From assembly GCA_965221125.1 (NCBI GenBank), contig CBDCRW010000007.1, forward strand, positions 224,001-288,000: a stretch of 64,000 nt of DNA. Reading direction: 5' to 3'. The translations under genes and the position numbers were made by a program. This DNA comes from Alphaproteobacteria bacterium. GTDB lineage: Bacteria; Pseudomonadota; Alphaproteobacteria; UBA828. This document shows, one piece after another, positions 43,304-59,356 of the stretch (positions within the stretch are counted from its first letter, which is position 1; every line of letters begins with the position of its first letter). The notes under the pieces are model-generated. The model was not told where the DNA came from. It saw nothing but the letters and a program-made list of their open reading frames with translations, and did no database searches.

Positions 43304-44814
43304 CGGTCGCGGCCCTCACGAGCGAACAGGGCGGCGCCGGCGCCGGCGAGGCGGCCGAAGACCGCGCCAGAGACCAGGCCCGTGCCGCCCGGATAGTTGC
43401 CGTAGAAGAGCCCGCCCACCAGCTCGCCCGCGGCGAAGAGGCCGGGGATCGGCGCGCCCGAGACCGCCTGCACCCGCGCCTCCGGGTCGATGGCGAGCCC
43501 GCCGAAGGTAAACGTAATCCCGCAGGTGACGGCATAGGCCTCGAAGGGCGGCGTCTCGATCCGGTTGGCCCAGTTGGATTTTTGGGGGGCGATGCCGCGC
43601 GTGCCGCGGCCGTCCTTCACCGTCGGGTCGAAGGGCACCTGCGTCATCACGGCGTCGTTGTAGGCCCGCACGGTCTCGAGGAAACGCGCGCCGTCGATGC
43701 CCTCCATCCGCGCGGCGAGACCCTCCAGCGTGTCCGCCTTCGCCCTGGTCACCTGGCGGATGCGGTACTCGTCCCGCAGCAGGTGCGTCACCTGCGAGTC
43801 GAACACCTGCCACGCGACCTGTCCGGGCTGCTCCAGCACCCGGCGGCCGTAGGCGGCGTAGGTGTAGTTCCGAAAATCCGCGCCCTCGTCGACGAAGCGC
43901 TCGCCCGCCGCGTTGACGACGATCGCGAAGGGGTAGCTGTGCTTCTGGAAGCCGTCGCCCACGGAAAGGTCGCCGAAGGCGGGCGCGTTCCGGTCCCAGG
44001 CTACTGCGTGGCAGCCGGACCAGTGGCCGGCTGGCATCGCGCCGGCTTCCAGCGCCATGCGGATGCCGTCGCCCTGGTTGAAGCGGGTGCCGCGCACCTT
44101 GGCGAGGTCCCAGCCCGGCCCGAGATAGCGCGCGCGCCACGCGGCGTTGGCCTCGAAGCCGCCGCAGGCGAGCACCACCGCGGGCGCCCGGACTTCGACC
44201 GTGCGCCCCTCGATTCGCGCGCGGACGCCACGCACGCCGGCGTCGTCGGTAACGAGCGAGAGGGCCTGCGCCCGGTAGTGGACGGCGACACCCGCTTCCG
44301 CCGCGGCCTTGTAGAGCGCGGCGACGAGGCCGGGCCCCCCGCCCCAGGCCTCGACCGCAAGCCCGCCCCAGAAGCGGAAGCGGCCGTCCTCTCGCTTGAA
44401 AGCCTGGCGGCCGTAGCTCGGCTGCAGGCGCACGCCCTTCTCGCGCAGCCACAGCAGGGTCGGGTGGCTGCGCGTCACAAGCTGCTCGACCAGGTCCGGC
44501 TCGGCGCGGTACTGGGTGAGCCGCGCCATGTCGTCGTAGTAGTCGGCCTCGGTGTAGGCGCCGAAGTCGGTCTCCGCCAGCTCGCGGTCGGAGAGGTCGG
44601 GCATCAGCGCACGCAGCGCTTCCGCCCCGTCGAAGACCACCCGCATGGCGCCGGCGGTGTACGTGCTGTTGCCGCCGCGCTCCTCCTCCGGCGCGGCTTC
44701 GAGCAGAGCCACGCGGGCGCCGCCCTCGGCCGCGGCGAGCGCTGCCGTGAGCGCGGCGTTGCCGCCGCCCACGACCGCGACATCGGCCGCCAGCGTCTCG
44801 CCCATTCCATTCAT
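43300..44814 (-). CDS. tcuA: FAD-dependent tricarballylate dehydrogenase-like flavoprotein
   Basis: VVGGGNAAL, RGGNS, GGFEAN, VRGTRFNQGDG, RFVDEG, GITFTFGG, GLFAAGE, NYPGGTGL. Confidence 0.8.
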   Translation of the reverse strand: MNGMGETLAADVAVVGGGNAALTAALAAAEGGARVALLEAAPEEERGGNSTYTAGAMRVVFDGAEALRALMPDLSDRELAETDFGAYTEADYYDDMARLTQYRAEPDLVEQLVTRSHPTLLWLREKGVRLQPSYGRQAFKREDGRFRFWGGLAVEAWGGGPGLVAALYKAAAEAGVAVHYRAQALSLVTDDAGVRGVRARIEGRTVEVRAPAVVLACGGFEANAAWRARYLGPGWDLAKVRGTRFNQGDGIRMALEAGAMPAGHWSGCHAVAWDRNAPAFGDLSVGDGFQKHSYPFAIVVNAAGERFVDEGADFRNYTYAAYGRRVLEQPGQVAWQVFDSQVTHLLRDEYRIRQVTRAKADTLEGLAARMEGIDGARFLETVRAYNDAVMTQVPFDPTVKDGRGTRGIAPQKSNWANRIETPPFEAYAVTCGITFTFGGLAIDPEARVQAVSGAPIPGLFAAGELVGGLFYGNYPGGTGLVSGAVFGRLAGAGAALFAREGRDR

Positions 44815-44890
44815 GCGGCAGGGTTCATGTCGGGATCATCCCGGTTGACGGCGGTCGACGCTGGCGCCATTTGTGTTGTATCGTGTCAAC

Positions 44891-45142
44891 ATGCCTCGGG
44901 CCAAGCATCCGAAGCAGGAGGTCGAGAGTGCCCTACGCGATGCCGAACGTGCCGGTTGGACCGTAACGCCGACTCGCGCCGGGCATCGCTGGGGCGTGGC
45001 GACATGCGGCGTGGCGGGTCCGTCCGCTTGTCAGATATCAATCTGGTCCACGCCCCGCAACACCGGCAACCACGCCAGGCAGTTGCGGCGATTCATCGCG
45101 CGCTGCCCGCATACGGGGGCCGAGCGATCGGGAGACGGCTGA
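44891..45142 (+). CDS. Small basic protein, putative HicA-like toxin
   Basis: 83 aa; AL..AE..GW, GH.WG, IWSTP motifs; directly upstream of an HTH partner. Confidence 0.6.
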   Translation: MPRAKHPKQEVESALRDAERAGWTVTPTRAGHRWGVATCGVAGPSACQISIWSTPRNTGNHARQLRRFIARCPHTGAERSGDG

Positions 45143-45143
45143 C

Positions 45144-45704
45144 ATGTCCACGTTTCACTTCACGCTGATCGTCGAGGGACCGGACCTTCAGGATGCGGCG
45201 TGCATCGACGCGCTGTTCGAGGCCGGGTGCGACGACGCGGCCATCGGCCGGAGCGACGGAGTCCAGTTCGTCGACTTCGACCGGGAGGCAGGCACGCTCG
45301 ACCGGGCCATCCTGTCGGCAGTGGACGACCTGGAGACGCTGGCAGGCGTCGAGGTCGTGCGCATCGCCGACGCCGGTCTTGCGTCTCTGGCGGATATCGC
45401 CGCCCGCCTCGGCCGCACACGGGAGAGCGTTCGATTGCTGGTGAGCGGTGCGCGCGGCCCCGGCGGGTTTCCCAAGCCGGTCACCGACCCGCGCGGCCGC
45501 TATCGGCTGTGGCGCTGGTCCGACGTGGAGCGCTGGTGCGTGGAAGAGCTGGGCGAGGCGCTGCCGATTTCGCAGGACGACGTCACGGCGGCCATCAGCG
45601 CCGCGCTGGAACTCCGCCATTTTCGCCGTGCAAAGGCGCCCGCAAGCCCGGTCACGCTGCGGGAGCTAGTCGGCATCGAGGAGCAGCGGGCGTCTTCGGA
45701 ATAG
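45144..45704 (+). CDS. Putative antitoxin / DNA-binding protein (HicB-like N-terminus plus HTH)
   Basis: FTL..DALFEAGCDDA..VDFDREA..AILSAV; HTH SLADIAARLGRTRESVRLL..G.RGPGGFPKP..LWRWSDV. Confidence 0.7.
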   Translation: MSTFHFTLIVEGPDLQDAACIDALFEAGCDDAAIGRSDGVQFVDFDREAGTLDRAILSAVDDLETLAGVEVVRIADAGLASLADIAARLGRTRESVRLLVSGARGPGGFPKPVTDPRGRYRLWRWSDVERWCVEELGEALPISQDDVTAAISAALELRHFRRAKAPASPVTLRELVGIEEQRASSE

Positions 45705-46114
45705 GGGCGCCGAGCGCGGCGTGAGCCTTCCGCGAAGGGCCGGTGTACTATCCCGCCAGCCATGCACGGGAGGGACCGAATGAGCGCAGCCGCAGCCGAG
45801 GGAAATCAGTCCGCGTCCGAGCTTCGCCTAGTGTGCACTATTATTGACGGTCAGTAGGCGAAAACACTGTGACGTAAGGGTCGCTTGTTCCTCCTGTATC
45901 GGGATTACGCTACAATGGGTTAGGATCGATGTCAAGGACAGATGAAGCGGGGTTGGAGAACACATGGGCTGATCCTGTGTCTCTGGGGAGTTGCACGAGG
46001 GGAACCGGGTTGTGGTGTTTGCTGTGGAGCACTGGTATGGTTCTGATGATGGACATGGACCTCTCTGCGAGGACACAATGGCGGCATATATTATCGGGCG
46101 CGAGGAACGCCATA

Positions 46115-46167
46115 GGAATATATTGACATATTCCAGTATGTCACGGAGCTGCGTGTCTCTGTGGTTT
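46115..46167 (+). promoter_or_regulatory. Promoter/operator, possibly oriT, upstream of the RHH genes
   Basis: TTGACA at 46123; inverted repeats GGAATAT/ATATTCC and TGACATA/TATGTCA; followed by TGCGTGTCTCTGTGGT. Confidence 0.4.
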
Positions 46168-46193
46168 CGGGGCCCTACGGACGGCTGCCCGCG

Positions 46194-46556
46194 ATGAGGG
46201 AGGATGCCGGCGGACGCCGCCAGCGCGCGGTCATGGCCACCGATGCGGAGTGGGAGCGGATCGGCCGGGCGGCTGCGGCGAGCGGCATGGACCTGTCGCG
46301 CTTCGTGATCCATCGCGCTCTTGATCGGGAGCCTCTGCCGCCGGAGGTCCTGCGCCGGGCGGTGCGCGAGATGCTGGTGCTGTCCAGACTGGAGGAAAGG
46401 CGGCTGCGCGGGGCGGGCGCCGGTGCGGCCTGGGAGGACGCCTGCGACGCGGTGGACGAATGGATCGACCGCGAGGGCATGCTCGACCGGCTCACCGATC
46501 CAGGTGCTGCGAACCGCTGGAAGGCGGCGGGGTCGACCGGGGAGGACCGATCGTGA
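46194..46556 (+). CDS. Ribbon-helix-helix protein (MobC/NikA-like) 1
   Basis: RRQRAVMATDAEWERIGRAAAASGMDLSRFVIHRAL. Confidence 0.7.
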   Translation: MREDAGGRRQRAVMATDAEWERIGRAAAASGMDLSRFVIHRALDREPLPPEVLRRAVREMLVLSRLEERRLRGAGAGAAWEDACDAVDEWIDREGMLDRLTDPGAANRWKAAGSTGEDRS

Positions 46557-46864
46557 CTGAGGAGCCTGCGCGGCCCCTAAGACGTCAGCGGAGCCTGCAC
46601 TGCAAGCCGGCTGAACAGGCGATGATCCGGGAGCGCGCTGAGGCGGCGGACAAGACCGTGTCGCGCTATATTCTGGAGCTCGCGCTCGCCGACGATCCGG
46701 ACCGCCATCCCCTGGTGCTGACGGAAGCGGAACAGGTGGAGCAGAGGGACGGGGTACGGGAGTTGCAGGCATTCGTAAGGGCTCTGCGGCGCGAGCTTCC
46801 GGGGGGCAGCGGGCTCAGCCTGCTGAGCGCGATCTCCGTCCTTGCGCGGGAGCGTTCGTCGTGA
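46553..46864 (+). CDS. Ribbon-helix-helix protein (MobC/NikA-like) 2
   Basis: RRQRSLHCKPAEQAMIRERAEAADKTVSRYILELAL; GTGA overlap. Confidence 0.7.
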   Translation: MTEEPARPLRRQRSLHCKPAEQAMIRERAEAADKTVSRYILELALADDPDRHPLVLTEAEQVEQRDGVRELQAFVRALRRELPGGSGLSLLSAISVLARERSS

Positions 46865-47433
46865 GACGGACGCGGCGTCGGCGGAAGGCGCGCCGGCCGA
46901 GCCGGCACATCTCGATCTCGGCGACGGACGCGGATTGGGAGGTGGTTCGCAGCAACGCGGAGCGGCGCGGCCTGTCGATCGCGCGCTACCTGCTGGAGCT
47001 GGTGGAACGGGACAGTGAGGAAGAGGACGCAGGTCCCGAACTGGCGCTTGCCAAGGAAGAGCAGCGTGAGCAGCTGGAGGCGCTGCAGGAGGTCCGCGCG
47101 CTGATGCTGGAGGCGGAGGCGGAGGATGCAGGTCCGCTTGTACGCGATATGCAGGAGCGGATCGCGGTGATGTTCGCAGCCTGGGCGTCTGCGATGGCCG
47201 GGTCGGGCCGCTCGGAGGAGCTGCGGCTGGCGCTCGCCTCGGTGCTTGGCGAGGAGCGGGCGCGTATCGCTGCGGCCTCGGTCGTACCAACCTCGGTCGT
47301 ACCAACCTCGGTTGTGCCGGCCTCGGCCGCGGTCTCGACCGCGGTCTCGACCGAGGCGCCGGCCGCGCAGCAGGAGGTCGCGCCTCAGGCCCCTGACGGG
47401 GAGACGGACCCCGGCCAGGACCGCCTGCTGTGA
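46861..47433 (+). CDS. Ribbon-helix-helix protein (MobC/NikA-like) 3
   Basis: RHISISATDADWEVVRSNAERRGLSIARYLLELV; GTGA overlap. Confidence 0.7.
   Translation: MRRTRRRRKARRPSRHISISATDADWEVVRSNAERRGLSIARYLLELVERDSEEEDAGPELALAKEEQREQLEALQEVRALMLEAEAEDAGPLVRDMQERIAVMFAAWASAMAGSGRSEELRLALASVLGEERARIAAASVVPTSVVPTSVVPASAAVSTAVSTEAPAAQQEVAPQAPDGETDPGQDRLL
47276..47353 (+). repeat. In-frame minisatellites: 15-bp x3 (SVVPT) and 12-bp x2 (AVST)
   Basis: cctcggtcgtaccaa cctcggtcgtaccaa cctcggttgtgccgg; ccgcggtctcga x2. Confidence 0.85.
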
Positions 47434-47665
47434 GGCGCTCACCATGTGCGCCGCCGGCATGAACGAGGTGCGCGAGGCCGACCGAACTAGGAGAAAGATG
47501 GCGTGATGGCGCGATGCGGCGGCAGAAGAAAAGGGGAACGCCACAGGCCTGCGAAGGGGAGACGGATTCCCGCCGGGAAAGGTGTCCGTGAGACGGCCTC
47601 CATGTGCGCCGCTGGCATGAATGAGGTGCACGAGGTGGACCACACGAGGGGACAATTGGCGTGAC
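47351..47665 (+). repeat. Diverged tandem duplication, 158-bp period
   Basis: ggggagacgga at 47398/47556; ccatgtgcgccgc(c/t)ggcatgaa(c/t)gaggtgc at 47442/47600; tggcgtga ending 47506/47664. Confidence 0.8.
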
Positions 47666-48037
47666 TGCTGTTGTTTTCCGGTCTAGCCGGATAGAAGCAC
47701 GGGTTTTTTTCTCACTTTGATTGGTTGGTGGATTTCCCGGGATGGTGGCCGAGTGCGGGAAGGACGCTGCCTGCGGCATTTTTTTGATCCTCAGCAGAAT
47801 CCTCATTGCTGTTGAAGCTGTGGAGCGGTGGGCGCGAGATCGGCGAGTGTGGTCAGGCGGTGGGCAAGCGCCAGCTTGTCCACGGGCTGTCCACACGGTC
47901 CGCAGGACGCCGATCGGTCCGCAGGACGCGTCCACGGCTCCACAGCTTGGCGGCGGCGGGGAGCGTCCGTAATCTTGGCCTCTCACTGAACGACAAAGAG
48001 AGGCCCGGGGGACGGAACTCCCGCCGGGCCAGGGCCG

Positions 48038-48673
48038 GTGCAGCTTCGCTACGAAACGGGGCTCACCAGCGAGGAATACGTTAAGACCGAGGCGTGGCGC
48101 GACGCAAGGCTTGAGCGCTGCCCGAATCACCCGCACGGCGGATGTTCTGTGGCAAGCCACGGCACCTACGAGCGGAAGACCCCGCCCGGCGCAAGGGTTC
48201 CTCGCTGGTATTGCCGTGAGAGCCATACGACCATCGGCCTGCTGGCCGACTGTCTGGCGGCGCGGCTGCCGGGCACGCTCGATGCGCTGGAAGCGGTTGT
48301 TGTCGTGGCGGAGGAGGCCGGCAGCCTGGAGGAGGCAGCGGACGAGGTGCGCTGCCCCGAGGACGAGGACGCCATCGAGCTTCCCGGCGCCGTGCGTTGG
48401 ATCCGCCGCAGGCTGAAGCTTGTGCACGACGCGCTTGTGCGCGTCATCGGCCTGATCCCCGACCTGCTCGCGGGCTGCGCGCCCACCATGAGCGCGGTGC
48501 GCGAGCGTCTGAAGAGCGACAGCGCGTTGATGGAACTGCGCGGCCTGGTCGCCGGGCAGCTCCGGACGCTACCCGCGCCTCTGGGCTTCCAACCCCACGG
48601 CATCGACGTGGGGAATCGCAAACCGCAGTTCCAACAACGGGCGGGGCCGGACCCGCCGCCGGAGAGTTCGTAG
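48038..48673 (+). CDS. Zn-finger-like transposon accessory protein
   Basis: CPNHPHGGC..HGTYERK..RWYC..HTTIGLL.DCL, followed by a helical/HTH-like region. Confidence 0.7.
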   Translation: MQLRYETGLTSEEYVKTEAWRDARLERCPNHPHGGCSVASHGTYERKTPPGARVPRWYCRESHTTIGLLADCLAARLPGTLDALEAVVVVAEEAGSLEEAADEVRCPEDEDAIELPGAVRWIRRRLKLVHDALVRVIGLIPDLLAGCAPTMSAVRERLKSDSALMELRGLVAGQLRTLPAPLGFQPHGIDVGNRKPQFQQRAGPDPPPESS

Positions 48674-48718
48674 CGTGACGATCCCGGGGCCAGGGAGTCC
48701 CTGAACGAGGATCGCACC

Positions 48719-50047
48719 ATGAACAGCTCAGACGACGACCTTCGCCAACAGATCGCGCTCTTCCGATACGACGTCATCGCCGATCTGGTGCATCTGCCCG
48801 TGGGTGCACCGGGTGCCGGCGCGATGATGCGCGCCAAAGCCGAGAAGACCTACACGATCCCCGGAACCACCAGGACCCGGGTCGCCGCCGAGACCATGCG
48901 GCGCTGGATCAAGGACTACCGCTACGGCGGCTTCGACGCGCTCTACCCCAAGCCCCGCACCGACCGGGGGAAGCCCCGGCGGCTGCCGCCCGAGGTCGCC
49001 GAGCGCCTCATCGCGCTGAAGACCGAGAACGACGCATTGTCGGTTCGCGCCATCATCCAGAAGGTCAAGGAGGAGGGTATCGACCACCCGCTCGCCTCGT
49101 CCACCGTGCACCGCCTCTTCAGCCGCGAGGGCCTGTTCGACAAGAAGCCGCCCGACGGGGCGGATCGCCGCCGCTTCGCCTTCCGGCATGCCGGCGAGAT
49201 GTGGATGAGCGACGTCATGCACGGACCCAAGGTCCGGCACGGCCGAACCCGGCGCAAGACCTACCTGATCGCCTTCATCGACGACGCCACCCGCGTCATC
49301 CCGTTCGCCGCCTTCGCCATGGCGGAGAACACTGCGGCGTTCCTGCCGGTGTTCAAGGACGCGCTGATCCGGCGCGGCCTCCCGGCCCGCTTGTACGTCG
49401 ACAACGGAAGCGCCTACCGCTCCCGTCATCTCTCCCTGGTCTGCGCCAGGCTCGGCGTTGCGTTGATTCACGCAAGGGCGTTCCAGCCAGCGGGAAAGGG
49501 TAAGATCGAGCGCTTCTTCCGCACCCTCCGGGCCGGCTGGCTCCGCCACCTCGGCGATGACGTCGACAGCCTGGAGGCGCTCAACCGCAGCCTCTGGGCC
49601 TGGATCGAGGGGGAGTATCACAACAGCCCGCATCGTGGCCTCGACGAGGGGCGCACCCCGCTTGAGCAGTGGGCGCTGGCCTCGGCCGGCGTGCGCTATC
49701 CCGACGCCACCATGGACCTCGACGATCTGTTCCTCTTCGAGGCCAGGCGCCGTGTCTACAAGGACCGCACCGTTAGTCTGAACGGCCGCGTCTACGAGGT
49801 CGACGCCCTCCTGGTGGGTCAGAACGTCATCCTGCGCTACGACCCGGCCGCGCCGCCCTCGCGCCCTCTCGACGTGGTCCATGACGGCAAGCCGGCCGGC
49901 AAGGCCAGCCCTCTCGACGCCTACGCCAATACCGCCGTCAGGCGCACCTACCCGGCCAGGGAGATCGAGGCCGAAGATCCGGCGCCCGAGCCTCCGCCCT
50001 CGCCGCTGGCCATGCGCAACCTCAAGGACAAGAAGGAGGACGAGTGA
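48719..50047 (+). CDS. DDE transposase/integrase (rve core, N-terminal HTH, Mu-transposase-like C-terminus)
   Basis: WMSD (D), YVDNGSAY (D), GKGKIERFFRT (E), YHNSPHRGL, RRVYKDRTVSLNGRVYEV. Confidence 0.93.
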   Translation: MNSSDDDLRQQIALFRYDVIADLVHLPVGAPGAGAMMRAKAEKTYTIPGTTRTRVAAETMRRWIKDYRYGGFDALYPKPRTDRGKPRRLPPEVAERLIALKTENDALSVRAIIQKVKEEGIDHPLASSTVHRLFSREGLFDKKPPDGADRRRFAFRHAGEMWMSDVMHGPKVRHGRTRRKTYLIAFIDDATRVIPFAAFAMAENTAAFLPVFKDALIRRGLPARLYVDNGSAYRSRHLSLVCARLGVALIHARAFQPAGKGKIERFFRTLRAGWLRHLGDDVDSLEALNRSLWAWIEGEYHNSPHRGLDEGRTPLEQWALASAGVRYPDATMDLDDLFLFEARRRVYKDRTVSLNGRVYEVDALLVGQNVILRYDPAAPPSRPLDVVHDGKPAGKASPLDAYANTAVRRTYPAREIEAEDPAPEPPPSPLAMRNLKDKKEDE

Positions 50048-50847
50048 TGTACCTGCGCCACTTCGCCTTCACCCGCCTGCCCTTCGAGACCCCGGCAGAG
50101 ACCGACGAGCTGTTCGAGTCCAACGCGCGCCGCGAGGCCGAGGCCAGGCTCGGCCACCTCATCGACCTGCGCGGCATCGGCCTGCTCACCGGCGAGGTGG
50201 GCTCCGGCAAGACCACCGTGTGCCGGCATCTGACCGCGCAGCTTCATCCAGGCCTCTACCGGGTCCACTACGTCTCGCTGACCACGGGCAACGTGCTCGA
50301 CATGTACAAGGCGATCGCGTGGGAGATCGGCCTGCCCATCGAGCGCTCCCGCGCCTCGGCCTATCAGGCCATCCGAAACGAGATCTCCCGCCTCGTCACC
50401 GAGGCCAAGCAGCTGCCGGTCCTCGTCATCGACGAGGCCCATCATCTGCGCAACGACGTCCTTGAGGACCTGCGCCTGCTCACCAACTTCGCCATGGATG
50501 CAGAGCAGCGCCTGTGCCTCGTCCTCGTCGGTCTGACCGAGCTCAGGCGCCGCCTGGCCATGGCCATGCACGAATCCCTCAGCCAGCGCCTCGTCGTCCG
50601 CCACCACCTGAGCGGTCTCGACCGCGACGAGGTCGACGCTTACATCAAGCACCGCCTCAGGCTCGCGGGATGCGAACTGCCGCTGTTCGAAGAGCCCGCC
50701 GTCGAGGCCCTGTTCCAGGGCGCGCGCGGCCTGCCGCGCCAGATCAACCGCATCGCCCACTACGCGCTCTCCGCCGCCGCTCTCGACGAGGCGAGGACCG
50801 TCAGTGCCGACCACCTGCAGCACGCGCTCGAGGAACTGCGGCCATGA
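50044..50847 (+). CDS. ExeA-type AAA+ ATPase (transposase helper)
   Basis: YLRHFAFTRLPF, GEVGSGKTT, VLVIDEAHHL, LVLVG, GLPRQIN. Confidence 0.92.
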   Translation: MMYLRHFAFTRLPFETPAETDELFESNARREAEARLGHLIDLRGIGLLTGEVGSGKTTVCRHLTAQLHPGLYRVHYVSLTTGNVLDMYKAIAWEIGLPIERSRASAYQAIRNEISRLVTEAKQLPVLVIDEAHHLRNDVLEDLRLLTNFAMDAEQRLCLVLVGLTELRRRLAMAMHESLSQRLVVRHHLSGLDRDEVDAYIKHRLRLAGCELPLFEEPAVEALFQGARGLPRQINRIAHYALSAAALDEARTVSADHLQHALEELRP

Positions 50848-51884
50848 CCGGCTTCCCGACCCGCGCCCCGATCGAGCTGGAGGAGCGGCCGCGCGAGCAG
50901 CAATGGCTGGTGGACACGCTATGGGGCGAGCAGGCCGTCGGCATCGTCGGCGGCGAGCCGAAGTGCGGCAAGTCCATCCTGGCGCTGGACCTCGCGGTCG
51001 CAGTCGCCGCCGGCGTCCCATGCCTGCGGCACTTCGCCCCGGCCCGGCCTGGCCCGGTCCTGCTGTTCGCCGCAGAAGACGCCGGCCACCTCGTGCGCAA
51101 GCGCCTGCAGGGGATCGCCCGCGCCGCAGGCGCCCGCTTCGAGACCCTCGACATCGCCGTCATCGACGTGCCCACACTGCGCCTCGACCATCTCGACGAC
51201 CGCCGCCGCCTGCAGCAGACCGTGGAGCGCATCGCACCGCGCCTCGTGGTCCTCGACCCCCTGGTCCGCCTGCACGGCGTGGACGAGAACACGGTTGCGG
51301 ACGTCGCCCCGATCCTCGGCTTCCTGCGCGACCTGCAACGCCGCTTCGAGACCGCCGTCCTCCTCGTCCACCACGCCCGCAAGAGCGGGGCCACGAGGCC
51401 GGGGCAGGCCCTGCGGGGCAGCAGTGAGCTGCACGCCTGGGGGGACTCGAACCTCTACCTGCGCCGCCGGGACCGGCAGACCCTCATGACCGTCGAGCAT
51501 CGCGCCGCACGCGGTCTCGACGACATCGAGATCGAGCTCAAGGAAGACGGAGAGGAGCCCTCCTTCCGGCTGCGCCAGCCGCCCACGGCCGGCGGCGGGG
51601 CGCCTCAGCCCGAAACACCCGAATGCCGCGTTCTCAAGGCGCTCGCCGACGCCGGGGCGCCGCTCTCGCAACGCCAGATCCGGGAACGCGCCGCGACCCG
51701 GCACAAGACCGTCGGCGTAATCTTGCAAAAGCTCGTCCAGGAGGGTCGCGTCGCGCGCAACGCCGAGGGCGGCTACAGCGTCGTCGCAGGCGCAGCGGAC
51801 AAGCGGGCGGCGGCCGCCGCCGCCAACGGCAGCAGTCGGCCGCAGGCCCCGCGGTTCCCGGAGCCCGGTTCCGCCAACGCCTAG
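50844..51884 (+). CDS. RepA-like (AAA_25, RecA-fold) helicase/ATPase with C-terminal winged HTH
   Basis: QWLVDTLW, GGEPKCGKS, LFAAED, LVVLDPL, VDEN, LVHHARK, RGSSELHAWGD; C-terminal LSQRQIRE..LQKLVQEG; ATGA overlap. Confidence 0.85.
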   Translation: MTGFPTRAPIELEERPREQQWLVDTLWGEQAVGIVGGEPKCGKSILALDLAVAVAAGVPCLRHFAPARPGPVLLFAAEDAGHLVRKRLQGIARAAGARFETLDIAVIDVPTLRLDHLDDRRRLQQTVERIAPRLVVLDPLVRLHGVDENTVADVAPILGFLRDLQRRFETAVLLVHHARKSGATRPGQALRGSSELHAWGDSNLYLRRRDRQTLMTVEHRAARGLDDIEIELKEDGEEPSFRLRQPPTAGGGAPQPETPECRVLKALADAGAPLSQRQIRERAATRHKTVGVILQKLVQEGRVARNAEGGYSVVAGAADKRAAAAAANGSSRPQAPRFPEPGSANA

Positions 51885-52232
51885 GGGTTCGAGCCGGAAC
51901 CGCCGTCGGGAACCACCCTTCCCCAACGGTCCGGAAGGCGCTGCGCCTCCACCGGGATACTACGTCAGGTGAGCGGCCAGTCCGTGGCCGGAAGCTTGCT
52001 TCAGGCCATGGCAGCACTTCGTCGTGTGGACGGTGGCGAGTCACCCGAAGGGCCGAAGCGAAGCGCAGGAGCGGCGCAGCCGCTTGACGCGCCGACGGCC
52101 GCGCGACACCTCGTCAGCTCTCCTCAAGCACCAGTCCAAACCTCAATCAGACAGCGACCCCGGACCGCCCGCAGAGACCATGAGCTCCTACGCTTCGATC
52201 CGGAAAAGACCGAGCAATCTGGGAAATCAGGG

Positions 52233-53685
52233 GGTTGTGTCCCCAGACGTGGTGTAGGAGCTCCCGCTACCCCCGGTAGCTGTGGGTAACCGGCTTGGCG
52301 CCGCGACCGCCCTCGAGTCTGGTGGCGCCAAGCCGGTTATCCACAGCGGGGTGGCCATCGCGGTTCCGGTTTAGGGTTTGGGTGAATCCGAATCGACCCG
52401 AGCCTAAGGAGAACCACGATGACCGATGACAAGCTTACCCTGCGGACGCTGTTGGAGAAGAGCTCTGACGCCGATCTGCTGCGTGAGATGATCGCCTTCT
52501 CTGCGCAGCGCCTTATGGAGCTGGAAGTCGAGGGCCTGACCGGCGCCGAGCATGGCGCGCGGACGCCGGAGCGGATCAACCAGCGCAACGGCTACCGCGA
52601 TCGGCCTTGGGAGACCCGGGCCGGCACGGTCGACCTGAAGATTCCGAAGCTCAGGAAGGGGAGCTACTTCCCCGGCTTCCTGGAGCCCCGACGGACGGCG
52701 GAGAAGGCGCTCACGGCGGTGATCCAGGAGGCCTACATCCAGGGGGTATCGACCCGCTCGGTCGACGAACTGGTTCAGGCCATGGGCATGAGCGGGATAT
52801 CGAAGAGCCAGGTCTCGCGCCTTTGCGGGGAGATAGACGACAAGATCCGCAGCTTCCTCGACCGCCCGCTCGAAGGCGACTGGCCCTATCTCTGGCTGGA
52901 TGCGACTTACGTGAAGGTGCGCGAGGCCGGGCGCATCGTCCCGGTCGCGGTCACCGTGGCCGTCGCGGTCAACGACCAGGGCCGGCGCGAGATCCTCGGC
53001 ATGGCGATCGGCGCCTCCGAGGCCGAGACCTTCTGGACCGAGTTCCTGCGCTCGCTGACCAGGCGCGGCCTGCGCGGCGTGCAGCTGGTGATCTCCGACG
53101 ACCACAAGGGCCTGAAGGCCGCCACCACCCGGATCCTCGGCGCCACCTGGCAGAGATGCCGCGTCCACTTCATGCGCAACCTGCTGGCCCATGCCGGCAA
53201 GCAGGGCCGGCGCGTCGTCTCCGCCTTCGTCGCCACCGCCTTCGCCCAGGACGATGCCGAGGCCGCTGCCGCCCAGTGGCGCCTGATCGCCGACCAGCTC
53301 AGGCCCAAGGCCTCCAAGCTGGCGGCCCTCATGGACGAGGCCCAGCACGACGTCCTCGCCTACATGAGCTTCCCCAAGGAGCACCGGGTCAAGCTTCACT
53401 CGACCAACCCGCTCGAACGCGTCAACGGCGAGATCAAGCGACGCACCAACGTCGTCGGCATCTTCCCCAACGAGGACGCCATCACCCGCCTCGTCGGCGC
53501 CGTGCTGCTCGAGCAGAACGACGAATGGACCGTCGGAAGGAGGTACATGACGCTGGAATCGATCGCTCCCCTGAGCGACAATCCCACGATCAAGCTGTCC
53601 GCTGTGGCAGCCTGAATAACCCGGCCCTACCCGCCGGATGCCGCGTAAAGCGCGACGCTCTTACACCACTCCTCGGGACACGATC
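52233..53685 (+). mobile_element. IS256 family insertion sequence, 8-bp target duplication AATCAGGG
   Basis: 28-bp IRs GGTTGTGTCCCCAGACGTGGTGTAGGAG / rc GATCGTGTCCCGAGGAGTGGTGTAAGAG; AATCAGGG at 52225-52232 and 53686-53693. Confidence 0.95.
52419..53615 (+). CDS. IS256 family (Mutator-type) transposase
   Basis: [60 protein letters not shown]. Confidence 0.97.
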
Positions 53686-53737
53686 AATCAGGGCAGCGAT
53701 CACGTCAAATAATCTGGGAGATTCGGCGTCAAATAAC

Positions 53738-54409
53738 GTGCGAAACAACACTGCAGAGGGCGACGGCAAGAGCGGGCGGACGGGCCAGCCGGACTTGCTG
53801 GCAAGCCTGCCGCCGGAAGGGCCACCCGCTTCGCCACCAGCGCCCGGTATCGATCCTGCCGTGGTCGAGGAATTGCTCACCGAAGTGCGAGAACTGCGGG
53901 AACAGGTGGCCGGACTGAAGGAAGCGGTAGCCGCCGCGCGGCCCGCGCCAGGGCCTGAGGCGGTACCTGAGGTGCTGACGCAGGAGGCTCTCGAGGCCTG
54001 GGGCGACAACTTCTTGGCCCGCGTGGCCGAGATCGCGCGAGCCGAGGCCGCGCCAAGGGGCGACGCGGCGGCGACCGTCGCAGCCCATGCCGCCAAGATC
54101 GAGGAAGCGGCGGCGAAGGCGGCAGCGGCGGCAGACCGTGTCGACCGGGGTATGGCGACTACCGCGGACCGGGTCGCGGCCGAGATCGAGGGGGCCGTGA
54201 CCAGAATCGAAAAGGGCCTTGCGGCGACGCGCTCCCAGGTCATCGAGCATTCCGGTTCGATCCGTGGGCTTCTCTATGACGTCCTCACGCAAACGGCTGG
54301 ACCGAAGTTCGGCCTGAAGACGCTTCTTGTGGGCCTGATCGTCCTGATCTTCGGCATGCTGATCGAGAGCCGCGCGCACTTGCTCTACAAATGGCTGTGG
54401 TCCGGTTGA
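53738..54409 (+). CDS. Hypothetical coiled-coil protein with C-terminal TM helix (5' end possibly disrupted)
   Basis: LLTEVRELREQVAGLKE coiled coil; Ala-rich helices; LLVGLIVLIFGMLI TM; frame is open back to the IS256 end. Confidence 0.6.
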   Translation: MRNNTAEGDGKSGRTGQPDLLASLPPEGPPASPPAPGIDPAVVEELLTEVRELREQVAGLKEAVAAARPAPGPEAVPEVLTQEALEAWGDNFLARVAEIARAEAAPRGDAAATVAAHAAKIEEAAAKAAAAADRVDRGMATTADRVAAEIEGAVTRIEKGLAATRSQVIEHSGSIRGLLYDVLTQTAGPKFGLKTLLVGLIVLIFGMLIESRAHLLYKWLWSG

Positions 54410-54496
54410 GCCGGCGGCGTCCCGCCTCTCCGCTCCGGCGTCCCGTCTCCCTGCGTCCGCCGCGCACCGACGCGCCCATGCGTGGGGCCTGAGCCG

Positions 54497-57400
54497 ATGG
54501 TCGCCACGGTGGTGGAGCTCCGCTCGTCCGCCATGGCGGTGACCTATTACGAGCGCGACGGCTACTACGCAAAGAACGACCCCGAGCACCGCCAGGCGAG
54601 CTTCTGGTACGGGGACGCGGCGAAGGCGCTGGGGCTCAAGGCCCATGTGCGTCCCTCGCGCTTCGAATCGGTGCTGTCGGGATACGTGCCGGGGACGGAC
54701 CTGCGTCTCGGCCGGATGCGCGAGGGGGAGCACGATCACCGGCCCGGCTGGGACATCACCCTGTCGGCTCCGAAGTCGGTATCGCTGGAGGCGCTGGTGA
54801 TGGGAGACCGCCGGGTGATCCGGGCTCACGACGAGGCGGTGCGCGCGACGCTGGCGTTCGTGGAGGCGGAGCTTCTTCAGACCCGGGGCTGGGACCCCGC
54901 GACCAGGCGCCGTCCCCGGGTGCAGGCGGAGGGCATGGTGGTGGCGGGGTTCCGTCATCTCGCGAGCCGCGACCAGGACCCGCAGCTGCACACTCACTGC
55001 GTGCTGGCCAACATGACGCGGAATGCCTCAGGCGAGTGGCGGAGCGTGGAGCCGACGAAGATCCGCCGCAGCGAGAAGCTGATCGGAGCATTTTACCGGA
55101 ACGAGCTCGCGCTGCGTCTCCAGGCTTTGGGTATGGCCGTCTCGCCGACCCTGGTGGGACGGGTGCCGGGGTTCGAGCTCGCGGGCTACGACCGCGCCTT
55201 CCTGGACGCGTTCTCGGGCAGGCGCCGCGAGATTCTCGCGTACCTGGAACGCCAGGACCTGTCCTATACGGCGAAGCACACGCAGATGGCGGCGCTGCAC
55301 ACGCGCCGGCGCAAGGAGGACAAGGGCCTTGCGGACCTGGTGCCGGAATGGCGCGCGCGGGCGCGGGCGCTGGGTCTGGTCCGGGAGAAGACGGCCCTCA
55401 GGCCGCCCCGCCCGCTCGACCCGGTGACCGGCGAGCGGGTGGGGTTGCCGCACGTGCCCCCACCCGACCTGCCGGCCAACGAGATCCGCAGCCTGAAGCG
55501 TGCGCCGGCGCTGCCGAAGCTGCCGGAGCAGCCCAGCAATGACATTGCCGAACGCGCGGGCACGCGTCCCGAGCCCTCCCGCTCACCGGCGCCGGCGGAG
55601 CTGTCGCAGGAGCCCGAGCGGGGCGTCCTGGAGGCGGTGGCGCGGGCTGTGGCGCACGTTGCTGAGAGGCGCACCGCGATCCCGGAGGCCGAGATCCGGG
55701 CGGTGGCGCTGGGCCATGCGCCGGGGCGCTACACCCTGGCCGAGGTCGACGGGGCGATCGCACGGCTGGTGTCCGGCGGCGAGCTGATCGAGGCGGAACG
55801 CCGGGGCATGGACCGGGCCTTCGTCACCGACCGGGCGGTGAAGGCCGAACGCCAGGTGCTGGCGTCGATGCGGGCGGGGCGCTCACGGGGAATGGCGCTG
55901 GCCGGCGCGGATGCCGTCGAGGTGCGGCTCGACGCGTCGCGTCTCACCAAGGGCCAGAGGGAGGCGGTCCGCACGGTGCTGCTGTCGAACGATCTCACGG
56001 TCGGCGTGCAGGGCCACGCCGGGAGCGGCAAGACCACCATGCTGAGGGAGGTGAAGGCGCTTCTCGGGGACAGGACGATACAGGGCCTTGCGCCCTCTGC
56101 CGCCGCCGCACGGGTTCTCGCCAGGGAGGCGGACATCCCCTCACGGACGCTGCAGCACTTCCTGACCCGCTTCAACGATCTCTCGGACCCGGCGCGGCTG
56201 GCGCGGGGCCGGGAGGAGTACGGGGGCGCGGTGCTGGCGGTGGACGAGGCCTCGATGATCGACACCGTGCGCATGGAGGCGCTGCTGCGCATCGCGCGCG
56301 ATCTGAATGTGGCGCGTGTCGCGCTGGTGGGCGACACGGCGCAGCTGAGGGGGGTGGATGCTGGAGAACCCTTCCGTCTGCTGCAGAAGGCGGGCATGGC
56401 GACGGCGACCATGGACGAGGTGCTGCGCCAGCGCGACCCGGCGCTGCGCGCGACGGTAGGCCGCGTCAGGGAGGGGGAGCCGGGCGCGGCGATCGCGGCG
56501 CTGGGCAACCGGGTGCGCGAAGTGCGGCGCGAGGAGCTCGGCATCGAGGCGGCGCGGCGCTGGCTCGCGCTGGCGCCTGTGCAGCGGGCGGACACCCTGA
56601 TCCTCGCGCCGACGCACGCCATTCGCCGGCAGGCGAACGAGGCGGCGCGCGAAGGGCTCGCGGAGGAAGGGGTCTTGCGGGGCCGCACGCTCGCCGTCGA
56701 CCGCCTGGTAAATCGGCGGCTCACCCGCGCGCTGGCCTCCGACATACGGAGCTACGAGCCCGGCGACACTATAGTGTTCCACCGCGACGTCTTCGGCTGC
56801 CGCGTCAACGACGTCTGCACCGTGATGGGCCACGACGGCGGCAGGGTCGTACTGGCGCATGCGGACGGCGAGCGCCGGTTCCGGCCCTCGGGCAATGCGG
56901 CGCGCTATCTGGGCCTCTACGACACCGAGCGGATCGAGCTGCGCGCCGGCGACCAAATCCGCTGGACGCGCAACCGCAAGGCCCCGCCCGCCCGCGGCAG
57001 GCATCCCCAGGCACCGGACCTGGTCAATGGCGGCGAGGCGAAGATCGTGGAGATCGGCTATGAGCGGGTGCGCTTCCGCGAGGGCGGCCGGGAGTTCGGC
57101 CTCTCGCTTACCGACCCACAGCTGCGCCATCTCGATCATGCGTACTGCTCCACCGTGCATTCTGCGCAGGGCCGGACGGCGCGGGCGGCGATCGCGGTGC
57201 TGGACGCGGGCGGCTGGGTCGACCGCGAGCTGTTCCATGTCGAGCTCAGCCGGGTCTCGGAAGAGTTCCTGCTGCTGACCGACGACCGCGACGCGCTCAT
57301 CGAGAGCATGGCATACGACCGGAGCGAGGACGGTGCGCTGGAGGCGCTGGGGATCGACCTTTCCGAGCCCCCCGTGGTGGACCCCGAAGAGTTCACGGCG

Positions 57401-59356
57401 CTGGCGGCGGACTGGCGGGCACTTCTGCGGAAGAGCGAGGAGACGAACACGATTCCATTTTTCCTGTCGGGCTACCGGGACACGATGGCCCAGGCTGCGG
57501 CGCTCGCGCAGATCGAGGATCTGCCGGAGGACATGCGCCGCCTCACCGACACCATGCTGGCGAAACACGAGGAGCATCTTGCGCATGACCGGGAAGTGCA
57601 GGGCCTCGTCGAGGGCATCCGGGACCATTGGCGGCGCTGGCCGGAGTTGGGCTGGGCGGCCTCCGCGCAGGGCGTGCCTGTAGAGAAACTTCCCGCACAC
57701 GCTGCCTGGCGCGAGGAAGGGGCGGCGCTCCTGGAGGCGGGCCGCAGCCTGGTGGAGGCGGAGGGCGGGGCGGCCCACCGCGTGGCGGCACACCATGAGG
57801 TGGTACACCGCCAGGTGGTACACCGCCAGGTGGTACACCGCGATGTGGCCCACCACCTCCATGCCATGCCGGGCGGGCGCGCCGGTCTGGAAGACGCCGT
57901 CGTTATGCTTGAACGCACGCGGCTCCTCGACGATGCCGGGCGCTTCGAACGCGCGTGGCACGCGCTTCGCGAGCGAGCGACGGAGAGCGTCGTCCCGGAG
58001 ATTTACGCGCCGGGCTACCGGCAGGTGGCGGCGCTTGGCCAAAAGCTCGTGCTCGCCGATCAGGGGCTCGATGAGCGCGCGCAGCGCGCGGTGGCGGAAT
58101 GGCGGGAGATCGGTACGGCGCAGAGGGCGCTGGCGGAAGAGGTGCGCGCCCTGCCCGGCCGTATCGCGGCGTGGCTGTCAGCGGACCTGCCGCAGGACGA
58201 GCCCGGCGGGCTCGATCCTGACCATCCCGTGCGGCAGTCCTGGCGCGGGGAAGGCGCCAGGATGCAAGCCATGGCCGGGGACATGCTGCGCCCCGAAGAC
58301 GCCCACGCGCCCTACCTGGACGCCGAACCGGGCGGGCGCGAGGCTGTCCGGCAGGCGGCCGAAGAGGTCGCCGACGCGCTCCGGCACGACGGCTACCGGG
58401 CATTCGGGTGGCTGACGAAGGAGGTGAACCGGCAGGCGCAAGAAACCCGGACCGAAGCGTTCCACGTGCCGCGCTACGGCGAGCTGGTCGCACAGGCCGA
58501 GGCGCTCTCCGTGCAGGCGGCGCTGCCGGCGCGCACGCAGGAGGTCGTCGCATCATGGCTCGGCTACCATGCCAGGTGCGAACCGCTCTGCCGGCAGATC
58601 CGGGAATGGCCCGCACTGCTGGACGCGCTCACGGCGGACTGCCCCGAACGTCCCGCGAGGCTCGACGCCCTGACTGACTGGCGGCAGCGGGCGGAGCCCC
58701 TGCTCGCCGAGGCCCGAACGATGATGGCGGAGGACGCCCCTCACGCGCCCCATCTGGACGCCATTCCGGGCGAGCGCAAGGCGCTGGCCGAGGGAACGGG
58801 CCGCCTCGACCGCGCGCTGATCGAGGTCGAGGCGCGGGAGACGGTCGTGCTGTCATCGGTCGTACAGAAGTGGGCTAACGAGACGGGCGGGATCGGCTTC
58901 GACAGCCGCGCCTATGACGCGCTGATGGAGCGCGCGCGTTCTCTCGATGCCAGGCCGCATCTGCCGGAGGATTTGCGCGGCACGGTCGACGGCCTTCTCG
59001 CCAGGGACGAACGCTGGGCGCTCGACAGGGATCGGGTCCAAGCATTCCTCGTGCGGGCCGCGGAGTTCGAGCGCGCGCGGAACGCTCTGACGCAGATGGA
59101 CGTCACGACCAACTCGTTCGAGGAGCGTCGACAGGCCCGGCAGGACTGCGAGCGGAAAGAGAAGGAGGTTCTCGACGAAGCGGTGGCAATCAGGAAGAAC
59201 ATGCCGCAACACGAGCTCGCCGCTCATCTGGCCGCCGCCGGCGCAGGCTCGGACACGGTCCGTGAGCGCGAAGAGGAGATCCGCAACAGGATCGCCCGGG
59301 AACAGGAAAGGCAGGCCGCCCTGCGAATGAGCCGCGACCGGGGAATGTCGATGTAG
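54497..59356 (+). CDS. MOB_F conjugative relaxase-helicase (TrwC/TraI-like) with long repetitive C-terminal extension
   Basis: TYYERDGYY tyrosines, DITLSAPKSVS, RAHDEAV, FRHLASRDQDPQLHTH, FSGRR; helicase GHAGSGKTT, VDEASM, VGDTAQL, LRQ, HAYCSTVHSAQGRT; terminal SRDRGMSM. Confidence 0.95.
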   Translation: MVATVVELRSSAMAVTYYERDGYYAKNDPEHRQASFWYGDAAKALGLKAHVRPSRFESVLSGYVPGTDLRLGRMREGEHDHRPGWDITLSAPKSVSLEALVMGDRRVIRAHDEAVRATLAFVEAELLQTRGWDPATRRRPRVQAEGMVVAGFRHLASRDQDPQLHTHCVLANMTRNASGEWRSVEPTKIRRSEKLIGAFYRNELALRLQALGMAVSPTLVGRVPGFELAGYDRAFLDAFSGRRREILAYLERQDLSYTAKHTQMAALHTRRRKEDKGLADLVPEWRARARALGLVREKTALRPPRPLDPVTGERVGLPHVPPPDLPANEIRSLKRAPALPKLPEQPSNDIAERAGTRPEPSRSPAPAELSQEPERGVLEAVARAVAHVAERRTAIPEAEIRAVALGHAPGRYTLAEVDGAIARLVSGGELIEAERRGMDRAFVTDRAVKAERQVLASMRAGRSRGMALAGADAVEVRLDASRLTKGQREAVRTVLLSNDLTVGVQGHAGSGKTTMLREVKALLGDRTIQGLAPSAAAARVLAREADIPSRTLQHFLTRFNDLSDPARLARGREEYGGAVLAVDEASMIDTVRMEALLRIARDLNVARVALVGDTAQLRGVDAGEPFRLLQKAGMATATMDEVLRQRDPALRATVGRVREGEPGAAIAALGNRVREVRREELGIEAARRWLALAPVQRADTLILAPTHAIRRQANEAAREGLAEEGVLRGRTLAVDRLVNRRLTRALASDIRSYEPGDTIVFHRDVFGCRVNDVCTVMGHDGGRVVLAHADGERRFRPSGNAARYLGLYDTERIELRAGDQIRWTRNRKAPPARGRHPQAPDLVNGGEAKIVEIGYERVRFREGGREFGLSLTDPQLRHLDHAYCSTVHSAQGRTARAAIAVLDAGGWVDRELFHVELSRVSEEFLLLTDDRDALIESMAYDRSEDGALEALGIDLSEPPVVDPEEFTALAADWRALLRKSEETNTIPFFLSGYRDTMAQAAALAQIEDLPEDMRRLTDTMLAKHEEHLAHDREVQGLVEGIRDHWRRWPELGWAASAQGVPVEKLPAHAAWREEGAALLEAGRSLVEAEGGAAHRVAAHHEVVHRQVVHRQVVHRDVAHHLHAMPGGRAGLEDAVVMLERTRLLDDAGRFERAWHALRERATESVVPEIYAPGYRQVAALGQKLVLADQGLDERAQRAVAEWREIGTAQRALAEEVRALPGRIAAWLSADLPQDEPGGLDPDHPVRQSWRGEGARMQAMAGDMLRPEDAHAPYLDAEPGGREAVRQAAEEVADALRHDGYRAFGWLTKEVNRQAQETRTEAFHVPRYGELVAQAEALSVQAALPARTQEVVASWLGYHARCEPLCRQIREWPALLDALTADCPERPARLDALTDWRQRAEPLLAEARTMMAEDAPHAPHLDAIPGERKALAEGTGRLDRALIEVEARETVVLSSVVQKWANETGGIGFDSRAYDALMERARSLDARPHLPEDLRGTVDGLLARDERWALDRDRVQAFLVRAAEFERARNALTQMDVTTNSFEERRQARQDCERKEKEVLDEAVAIRKNMPQHELAAHLAAAGAGSDTVREREEEIRNRIAREQERQAALRMSRDRGMSM
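57798..57841 (+). repeat. 15-bp tandem repeat x3 (VVHRQ) in the relaxase
   Basis: aggtggtacaccgcc aggtggtacaccgcc aggtggtacaccgc. Confidence 0.9.

Follow-up and report, generated by a model that had tools for sequence, protein, structure and literature searches.

Structured signals in single-stranded DNA (ssDNA) are known from plasmids and phages, among them phiX174-type primosome assembly sites, G4-type sites, ssiA and ssiB of RSF1010, and Frpo of F. A DnaA box is also held by the outside end of IS50 (Tn5). The subject here is a branched hairpin near the left end of a transposon, in a stretch of 64,000 nucleotides (the window) from Alphaproteobacteria bacterium (lineage UBA828; GenBank assembly GCA_965221125.1, contig CBDCRW010000007.1, positions 224,001 to 288,000 of the forward strand). 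Its fold is under selection in one strand, it recurs in unrelated insertion sequences (IS), and it may act as a signal of this general kind.

A close precedent is the A site of the ABC primosome. In the part of PMC6127211 that treats it, which cites Masai 1990 and Masai & Arai 1995, a hairpin in ssDNA holds a DnaA box; DnaA binds it and recruits DnaB-DnaC, and primase follows. The consensus of the box, TTATCCACA, is quoted in that paper as 'DnaA box R1'. Hairpins are also described for IS200/IS605 and IS91/ISCR elements, where, in the account of PMC6006769, strand-specific hairpins inside the ends act in ssDNA, on the lagging-strand template.

Two further systems concern the host elements. The preprint bioRxiv 10.1101/2023.06.07.543989 places IS21 and IS256 among the families with circular intermediates, which presumably move by copy-out-paste-in; in that mode, as outlined in the same source, the circular copy is synthesised from a 3'OH that acts as primer at one end of the element. 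The transposon Tn6049 of Cupriavidus metallidurans CH34 is described in a passage of PMC2864759 as a 3.5-kb element with 12 copies, all of which carry a 'gspA' ATPase gene.

The hairpin of the window consists of the following parts, given in coordinates of the window.

47808-47955, + strand: branched hairpin module, matched by covariance model R1 at 168.9 bits; its core is 47815-47948
47898-47908, + strand: side arm 1, GTCC-GCA-GGAC, present in RNA and DNA folds
47917-47927, + strand: side arm 2, GTCC-GCA-GGAC, present in RNA and DNA folds
47876-47895, + strand, 3' arm: two words resembling DnaA boxes, TTGTCCACG (47876-84) and CTGTCCACA (47887-95), each matching TTATCCACA at 7 of 9 positions

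The core had been marked in an earlier reading of the letters alone (the sequence-only reading), and every pairing listed there is found in the sequence. In the basal stem, 47815-47826 pairs with 47937-47948. Further stems follow in order: gtgggcgcg with cgcgtccac (one G.T), gatcggcg with cgccgatc, and gtgtgg with ccacac. The apical stem pairs gtgggcaagc (47860-69) with gcttgtccac (47874-83) around the loop gcca (47870-73). The twin inserts ggtccgcaggacgc are also present and form the two side arms. The same reading had correctly placed the hairpin at the left end of a transposon: the element starts at 47669 and the hairpin begins 147 nt inside it.

Folding was assessed on 47805-47960, the hairpin with short flanks, against 200 shuffles. 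As RNA, the + strand reaches -107.9 kcal/mol, compared with a shuffle mean of -71.5 (z -8.60); as DNA, it is predicted to reach -58.7 kcal/mol (z -8.26). No shuffle was as good in either case. The check by folding that had been proposed is therefore positive for both nucleic acids, with z about -8.5. The - strand folds less well as RNA (-80.2 kcal/mol, z -5.18); several G.U pairs of the + strand turn into A.C there.

The stem words had been likened to degenerate DnaA boxes. Partial matches do occur: besides the two words listed above, GGCTCCACA (47936-44) agrees with TTATCCACA at 6 of 9 positions. A perfect box is absent from the window hairpin. The partner of TTGTCCACG is GTGGGCAA, and the two are joined through a G.T wobble that is constant in 17 of 17 homologues.

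The side arms vary among homologues within narrow limits. Side arm 1 has the forms GCCC-GCA-GGGC and GUCC-GUA-GGAC, or else is enlarged by an inserted hairpin of 26 nt; side arm 2 has the loop GAA, GCAA or GCA, and a 26-nt insert in L138 (labels of the form L### denote loci, G### genomes and X## RNA libraries). The loop variants are confined to GCA, GAA, GUA and GCAA. The 26-nt hairpin, GAGCCTGCCCYCAGCTTGACTGGGG, sits in either side arm depending on the homologue (L111, L132, L135, L138, L083), as if it were a sub-module in its own right.

Some other identities for the hairpin were dropped. It is not an intrinsic terminator: TTGGCGGCGG comes next, the terminator scan of 47600-48200 was empty, and a T run after the hairpin is absent in every homologue examined. 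Resemblance to 6S RNA fails for want of an open bubble in the 5' strand, and resemblance to a bridge RNA because no IS110-type recombinase is present. The open reading frames (ORFs) at 47721-47972 and 47806-48084 are unlikely to be coding, since homologues differ there by indels of 1-26 nt. An Rfam scan, also proposed earlier, gave no match at E <= 1 in 44000-52000.

Evidence for selection on the fold can be found in its homologues. Model R1 was built from 10 sequences and then used to search loci; a conserved 24-letter pattern added 11 metagenome loci, for a total of 17 distinct hairpins. The alignment of these 17 is fitted to the model and thus biased toward the structure. In it, 95.4% of cells are in standard pairs, compared with 84.5% in shuffles, and none of 500 shuffles reaches the observed value. 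Sliding the partner by 1-3 columns leaves 33-47% of cells paired. The compensatory changes that had been called for are present, with changes on both sides in 25 of the 58 pairs. An independent alignment of the first 10 sequences (MAFFT and RNAalifold) shows compensatory change in 20 of 58.

The exceptions to Watson-Crick pairing are strongly asymmetric. There are 81 G.U cells and 7 A.C cells among the 17 hairpins, many of the 81 being inherited from few columns; a fairer figure is that 24 pair positions show any G.U and 6 show any A.C. The apical G.U (GTGGGCAA with TTGTCCAC, pair 58:80) is present in all 17 sequences, and a second G.U is maintained in 12. The opposite strand scores 30-34 bits with R1, and the folding strand 118-170 bits. 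Given the covariation and the excess of G.U over A.C, it is the + strand, taken singly, whose fold is selected, and this could be sense RNA or + strand DNA.

A second hairpin of the same kind lies nearby. When the genome was scanned for TTATCCACA with at most one mismatch, 193 hits were obtained. A recurrent pair among them, TTATCCACA and TTACCCACA at a distance of 56 nt, lies in an IS of the IS256 family.

52279-52347, + strand: sibling hairpin GCTGTGGGTAA...TTATCCACAGC; its 3' arm holds a perfect DnaA box, and the G.T wobble recurs

This sibling hairpin is situated 47-115 nt inside the left end of the IS and has the sequence GCTGTGGGTAACCGGCTTGGCGCC, 21 nt, GGCGCCAAGCCGGTTATCCACAGC. Its DNA fold is predicted at -37.7 kcal/mol (z -7.38). 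Both hairpins share the outer word AGCTGTGG/CCACAGC and the helix GTGGGYAA/TTRTCCAC, with G.T at the same place; the lone difference within the helix (C-G in one, T-A in the other) is a compensatory pair.

Among 10 homologues of the sibling, the 11 basal pairs that hold the box are nearly invariant, and the G.U is kept in nine. Two basal pairs are changed in L159, with pairing preserved. Of the 26 pairs, eight in the middle stem show covariation, and the loop sequence is kept. The box matches the consensus at 9 of 9 positions in six homologues and at 8 of 9 in three more. Rfam returned only three miRNA-precursor hits on 52266-52355, all far below the gathering score. The sibling comprises 24 bp, and its loop, GCGACCGCC..GAGTCTGGCG, contains, in nine of the 10 homologues, a GANTC word (GAGTC), the sequence that CcrM methylates in alphaproteobacteria.

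Neither hairpin is tied to a single kind of element. The sibling occurs in the left ends of IS256-family elements (L152-L156, with a diverged form in L157). In another genus it follows an opposite-strand istB gene in an IS21-family element (L158; IstB E 5e-77). In L161 an IS91-family gene precedes it by 280 nt and an ORF with HTH and rve domains lies downstream; either is a candidate owner.

The larger hairpin behaves likewise. The element that carries it in the window is Tn6049-like, judged by published description, in having a DDE transposase, a GspA/ExeA-like ATPase, multiple copies and defined ends. Four of the seven distinct metagenome hairpins lie outside such elements. In L128 it comes after the stop codon of an opposite-strand IstB_IS21 gene (E 2.4e-54), and repeats of the word CGATTCC, which resemble an IS21 end, lie about 250 nt away; the hairpins of L133 and L136 are identical to it. 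In L130/L131 it follows an opposite-strand ORF with a weak rve match (E 1.3e-4), about 150 nt from the point where two contigs diverge. In L129 it follows an opposite-strand ORF weakly similar to Mu-transposase-C (E 1.6e-3). The ends of the elements in L128-L130 are placed from repeats and from the contig divergence point.

In all of these (L128, L129 and L130/L131), as in the window, the folding strand is oriented 5' to 3' from the nearest end toward the interior of the element. The distance of the module from that end is 50-250 nt. In a variant typified by L091 the arms are exchanged, so that TTATCCAC belongs to the 5' arm and GTGGATAA to the 3' arm; the wobble is still on the + strand, and the stem box matches at 8 of 9 positions. 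The hairpin is thus a portable accessory module of insertion sequences, and is not private to the transposon of the window.

The host transposon measures 4621 bp (47669-52232 plus 53686-53750) and is interrupted by the IS that carries the sibling. Its main features are listed here.

47669-47807, + strand: left end, with terminus TGTTGTTT, conserved subterminal words such as GGATTTCCCGGGATGGTGG, and then a spacer; defined by 20 copies and conservation across lineages
47765-47785, + strand: small GC hairpin followed by a T7 run, terminator-like by eye and unsupported in the window copy
47947-47975, + strand: promoter-like motif, -35 TTGGCG (47947-52), 17-nt spacer, -10 TAATCT (47970-75); conserved in 21 lineages
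47976-48037, + strand: conserved leader, with a purine-rich tract resembling a Shine-Dalgarno sequence (SD) and a hairpin GGCCCG..CCGGGCC before the GTG of ORF1; in all lineages, fold z -2.47
48038-48673, + strand: ORF1, GTG start, Cys/His-rich conserved protein of no Pfam or NCBIfam family
48719-50047, + strand: ORF2, DDE transposase with HTH_32, rve and Mu-transpos_C
50044-50847, + strand: ORF3, AAA_22 ATPase, TniB/ExeA/GspA-like
50844-51884, + strand: ORF4, AAA_25 RecA-fold ATPase with a MarR-type winged helix, the 'helicase' module
52233-53685, + strand: IS256-family IS (Transposase_mut), 1453 bp, inserted in the right part of the transposon with an 8-bp duplication AATCAGGG
53686-53750, + strand: right end (...GTGCGAAACAACA), defined by copy boundaries

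The genome holds 20 copies of the transposon at 99.2-100% identity, 19 of them with an intact left end. The termini are TGTTGTTT...AAACAACA. Direct repeats of 5 bp flank the element exactly in 13 of 17 copies examined; two copies match at 4 of 5 positions and two have none. The nearest NCBIfam family to ORF2 is IS481, at 201.9 bits, under the cut-off of 224. No structure is evident at the right end, where the fold of 51880-52232 is no better than chance (z 0.15). The small hairpin with the T7 run was rejected as a terminator, since the fold of 47755-47795 has z 0.09 and the terminator scan is empty.

The stretch between the hairpin and ORF1 bears on what the hairpin may do. An alignment of 21 left ends shows a motif TTGnnn, about 17 nt, TAnnnT, which is kept in lineages with and without the hairpin. 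In the second hexamer only T1, A2 and T6 are invariant, as is typical of -10 elements. Judged by this conservation alone, TTGGCG-17-TAATCT is a putative promoter. Two nt of the -35 are shared with the 3' foot of the hairpin; if the promoter is correctly placed, the hairpin is outside the operon's own mRNA. The hairpin of the conserved leader could join the SD to the start codon or gate translation.

A structured 5' leader RNA had been the alternative of the sequence-only reading, and it is weakened. A leader would lie between promoter and start codon, and the hairpin is upstream of the -35/-10-like motif, itself a prediction. In the IS21-family and rve elements, moreover, the genes run on the strand opposite to that of the module, which rules out a leader function there.

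The distribution of the module is patchy. ORF1 relatives are found in nine of the 20 other genomes of the genus; with this query none was found in 23 genomes of the family's other genera, nor in five of the order's other family. A contig scan gave 56 ORF1-related loci; the records are alpha-, gamma- and betaproteobacterial, and many come from uncultured organisms. The hairpin is present in lineages with ORF1 identities of 99, 89, 85 and 76%, and absent in those at 86, 83, 81, 80 and 72%, which have a short hairpin or none. It is seen again in distant lineages whose ORF1 is 56-78% identical (L105, L098, L111, L117). Shortened versions occur in L083, L085 and L079. In the 'empty' L013 about 10 nt at the end of the 3' arm are left, a remnant that indicates deletion rather than excision.

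In the lineages that have it, the hairpin changes less than the sequence beside it: it is 96-100% identical among lineages whose left flank is 76-81% identical. A survey of 21 genomes of the genus found it in five (G000 included), with full matches only in copies of the element, plus two partial fragments. The core pattern was found in none of 400 other alphaproteobacterial genomes.

The hairpin had also been linked to the helicase of the element, and this link does not hold, as each occurs without the other. ORF4 is present without the hairpin in L140 (87% identical) and L141 (77%), and is missing from the roughly 800 nt after ORF3 in the hairpin carriers L105, L083, L091, L095 and L079. A further locus with hairpin and no ORF4, L139 (G043), was left uncounted as the copy is truncated in ORF3. 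Relatives of ORF4 are also found in dozens of copies at sites without ORF1 (G032, G034, G041). At such sites in G032, G034, G040 and G041 they are 69-78% identical and number from 12 to more than 30 per genome, which suggests that other multi-copy elements carry the helicase module. A single in-frame TGA or TAG lies within a long frame of about 720-800 aa in the G032 relatives and in part of those from G040.

The box helix, the inward subterminal geometry and the precedent of the A site together favour a signal for helicase loading or priming in ssDNA, of the A-site type. This preference is tentative and stops somewhat short of an even chance. The core of the signal would be the 8-bp helix GTGGGYAA/TTRTCCAC, taken as a DnaA box with a fixed G.T wobble. 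The host elements appear to belong, or to be related, to families that move by replicative 'copy-out' or by a Mu-like replicative step. Replication entering from the nearest end would displace the inward strand, which would become the lagging-strand template. Once exposed as ssDNA, this strand could fold into the hairpin, and DnaA or another primosome protein may bind the box helix in its stem. The bound protein would load the replicative helicase and primase, the displaced strand would be copied, and transposition might be affected. Strand specificity would come from the G.T wobbles, which correspond to A.C mismatches in the opposite strand.

A signal read as ssDNA had been proposed from the start. 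Selection on one strand agrees with it, and the likeness to DnaA boxes is now backed by the sibling and by the L091 type; exposure of the strand as ssDNA, binding by DnaA and any benefit to the element are the conjectural parts. The position of the hairpin upstream of the promoter-like motif, hence outside the presumed operon mRNA, also speaks for it. A number of observations weigh against it. The boxes of the window are degenerate (7, 7 and 6 of 9); in L098 and L129 one box reads TGTCCCCAC with a compensating change, and in L079 a G-C replaces the wobble. About eight independent sequence types of the big hairpin stand behind the comparison. Lineages without the hairpin have multiplied too, with 32 ORF1 matches in G041 and 10 in G040, so the module is dispensable. 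A stricter consensus scan of 47600-48200 found no promoter-like pair on either strand. Finally, the frequency of G.U and the GNRA-type (GUGA, GCAA) and GNA loops are equally RNA-like, and the left end, together with the hairpin and the first part of ORF1, is represented in contigs from RNA libraries, so transcripts may cross the hairpin.

These last points lead to the chief rival, a function at the level of RNA. The inward strand is both the strand displaced by an incoming fork and the strand copied into RNA by incoming transcription, and its geometry would suit an incoming transcript in every host element. The hairpin would then form in RNA begun outside the element, or at an overlooked promoter a little before the hairpin, and would serve as a barrier or an RNase III-type processing site that uncouples the genes from outside transcription, a stabilising 5' structure, or a small RNA. 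The asymmetry of the + strand suits a sense RNA equally well, the loops are of GNRA or GNA type, and the fold is far stronger as RNA than as DNA (-107.9 and -58.7 kcal/mol). Contigs of four RNA libraries from three studies hold the left end with the hairpin, a weak hint, as contigs show no strand, ends or level. In X15, near-identical pieces run from the flank to 47888 and from 47859 to 48280, and ORF2-4 are almost uncovered; the uncovered parts of the element in X15, X17 and X18 do not count as evidence. A variant with paired insertions (C after 47867, G after 47875) is also found in these libraries. Yet no U-tract follows the hairpin in any lineage, which excludes an intrinsic terminator, no sigma-70-like promoter was found before it in 47600-48200, and the promoter-like motif is downstream. 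Its antisense position in the IS21-family and rve elements, the lack of an Rfam match, and the perfect, sequence-invariant DnaA box of the sibling, for which there is no obvious RNA reason, also tell against this rival, which is unlikely but deserves serious attention.

Two explanations dispense with a single-stranded function. The module may be a site in duplex DNA, either an array of DnaA boxes or sites for other proteins of host or element, which lies upstream of the -35 and regulates the operon or aids assembly of the transpososome. Palindromy would then be incidental or serve dimer binding, and the box in the end of IS50 would be a parallel. That the hairpin abuts the predicted -35, that box-like words occur four times in the 3' arm, and that the sibling has a perfect box are all as expected. 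Duplex recognition would not, however, be expected to produce the asymmetry between G.U and A.C, nor free covariation in stem segments that lack a box, as in GATCGGCG/CGCCGATC compared with GGCGCGCG/CGCGCGCC and in the middle stem of the sibling. Elsewhere, too, the module follows a convergent gene and is not beside a promoter, and this explanation is quite improbable. Still less probable, with only a slim chance, is a palindrome of no function for the host element, which hitch-hikes in IS ends like a MITE or REP repeat or is homogenised at the level of DNA. Its patchy presence among close lineages, the partial deletions in L083, L085 and L079, and its sharing by unrelated IS families would fit. 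Against these stand its restriction within the genus to copies of the element (bar two fragments), the remnant in L013 that indicates deletion and not excision, its slow evolution relative to the flanks, and the fact that homogenisation of DNA would yield no strand asymmetry. An independent repeat of the MITE or REP type was rejected, as the 21 genomes of the genus contain no solo full copy outside the element.

Several further observations concern the transposon and its surroundings. In one copy (own genome, C6:190559-196590) the IS256-family IS that is also present in the window copy lies inside the hairpin, at the site equivalent to 47840-47847, with an 8-bp overlap of the halves. ORF1 and ORF2 share a frame and are split by a single stop codon and 15 codons (48671-48721); read-through of the stop would fuse them. 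Just outside the left end is a direct repeat of 126 nt (47381-47506 and 47539-47664, 75% identical), in a region with a weak NikA-like ORF (46861-47433). The transposon adjoins a gene for a TrwC-type relaxase/helicase of 1624 aa (54482-59356), parts of which (55268-55737) are repeated about 6.27 kb downstream (61538-62000) at 84-97% identity. With such a neighbour, the transposon appears to sit in a conjugative-element or plasmid-like region.

A wider proposal can be built on the A-site-like reading. Insertion sequences that depend on replication, by copy-out or in the Mu-like way, would carry exchangeable single-strand origins: hairpins with DnaA boxes that form in the displaced strand alone and attract the host initiator, which loads the helicase. 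Alternative 'replication booster' cassettes passed between IS families would then include the big hairpin, the small hairpin of IS256/IS21 type and possibly the RepA/DnaB-like helicase gene, which is exchanged separately. This remains doubtful. A literature search for DnaA-box hairpin modules in insertion sequences, covering titles and the beginnings of abstracts, found none.

The assembly of the replisome on copy-out-paste-in and related intermediates is poorly understood. If the A-site-like reading is right, the hairpin offers a concrete cis-acting handle on that step, one that mutations can probe, IS elements swap replication signals as cassettes, and a natural and widespread class of A-site-like signals exists beyond plasmids. 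If the function lies in RNA, the hairpin is an uncatalogued structured motif common to several IS families. Under either reading, the covariance model and the rule that the hairpin points inward can be reused for annotation.

Tn6049 resembles the host element in being multi-copy and in carrying a gspA-like ATPase gene, as compared by description and not by alignment. At 3.5 kb it is shorter than the element of the window (4.6 kb), which has in addition a fourth gene, for the AAA_25 ATPase, and the hairpin module.

Hairpins of IS200/IS605 and IS91/ISCR elements are, in the account cited at the outset, strand-specific and placed just inside the transposon ends, as here. Those hairpins are recognised and cut by HUH transposases, whereas the present elements have DDE transposases and keep the hairpin away from the cleavage site, at 50-250 nt from the terminus. 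A hairpin recognised by a transposase of that type was rejected for the window, because the element encodes an rve DDE transposase and not an HUH (Y1) enzyme.

The end of IS50 (Tn5) likewise contains the word of the host initiator within an element end, but as a single duplex box in the terminal repeat, with neither hairpin nor asymmetry. The ssi signals of plasmids and phages and the ssDNA promoters are, by description, similarly structured and placed for priming of a displaced strand; the window hairpin differs in occurring in chromosomal, multi-copy IS elements. A promoter of the Frpo type was rejected, as no -35/-10 pair lies in the stem (scan of 47600-48200, both strands).

The nearest known thing is the A site. 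It has a DnaA box borne by the stem of an ssDNA hairpin; here, the fold is selected in one strand and the box of the sibling matches at 9 of 9 positions. The A site derives from plasmids and was studied in phage-vector assays, whereas the present hairpins reside in insertion sequences and are known from sequence alone. The window hairpin, of about 134 nt, is also branched, and has several degenerate boxes and a fixed G.T wobble in the box. A strand-specific DnaA-box hairpin cassette shared among insertion sequences would be a new variant of the A site.

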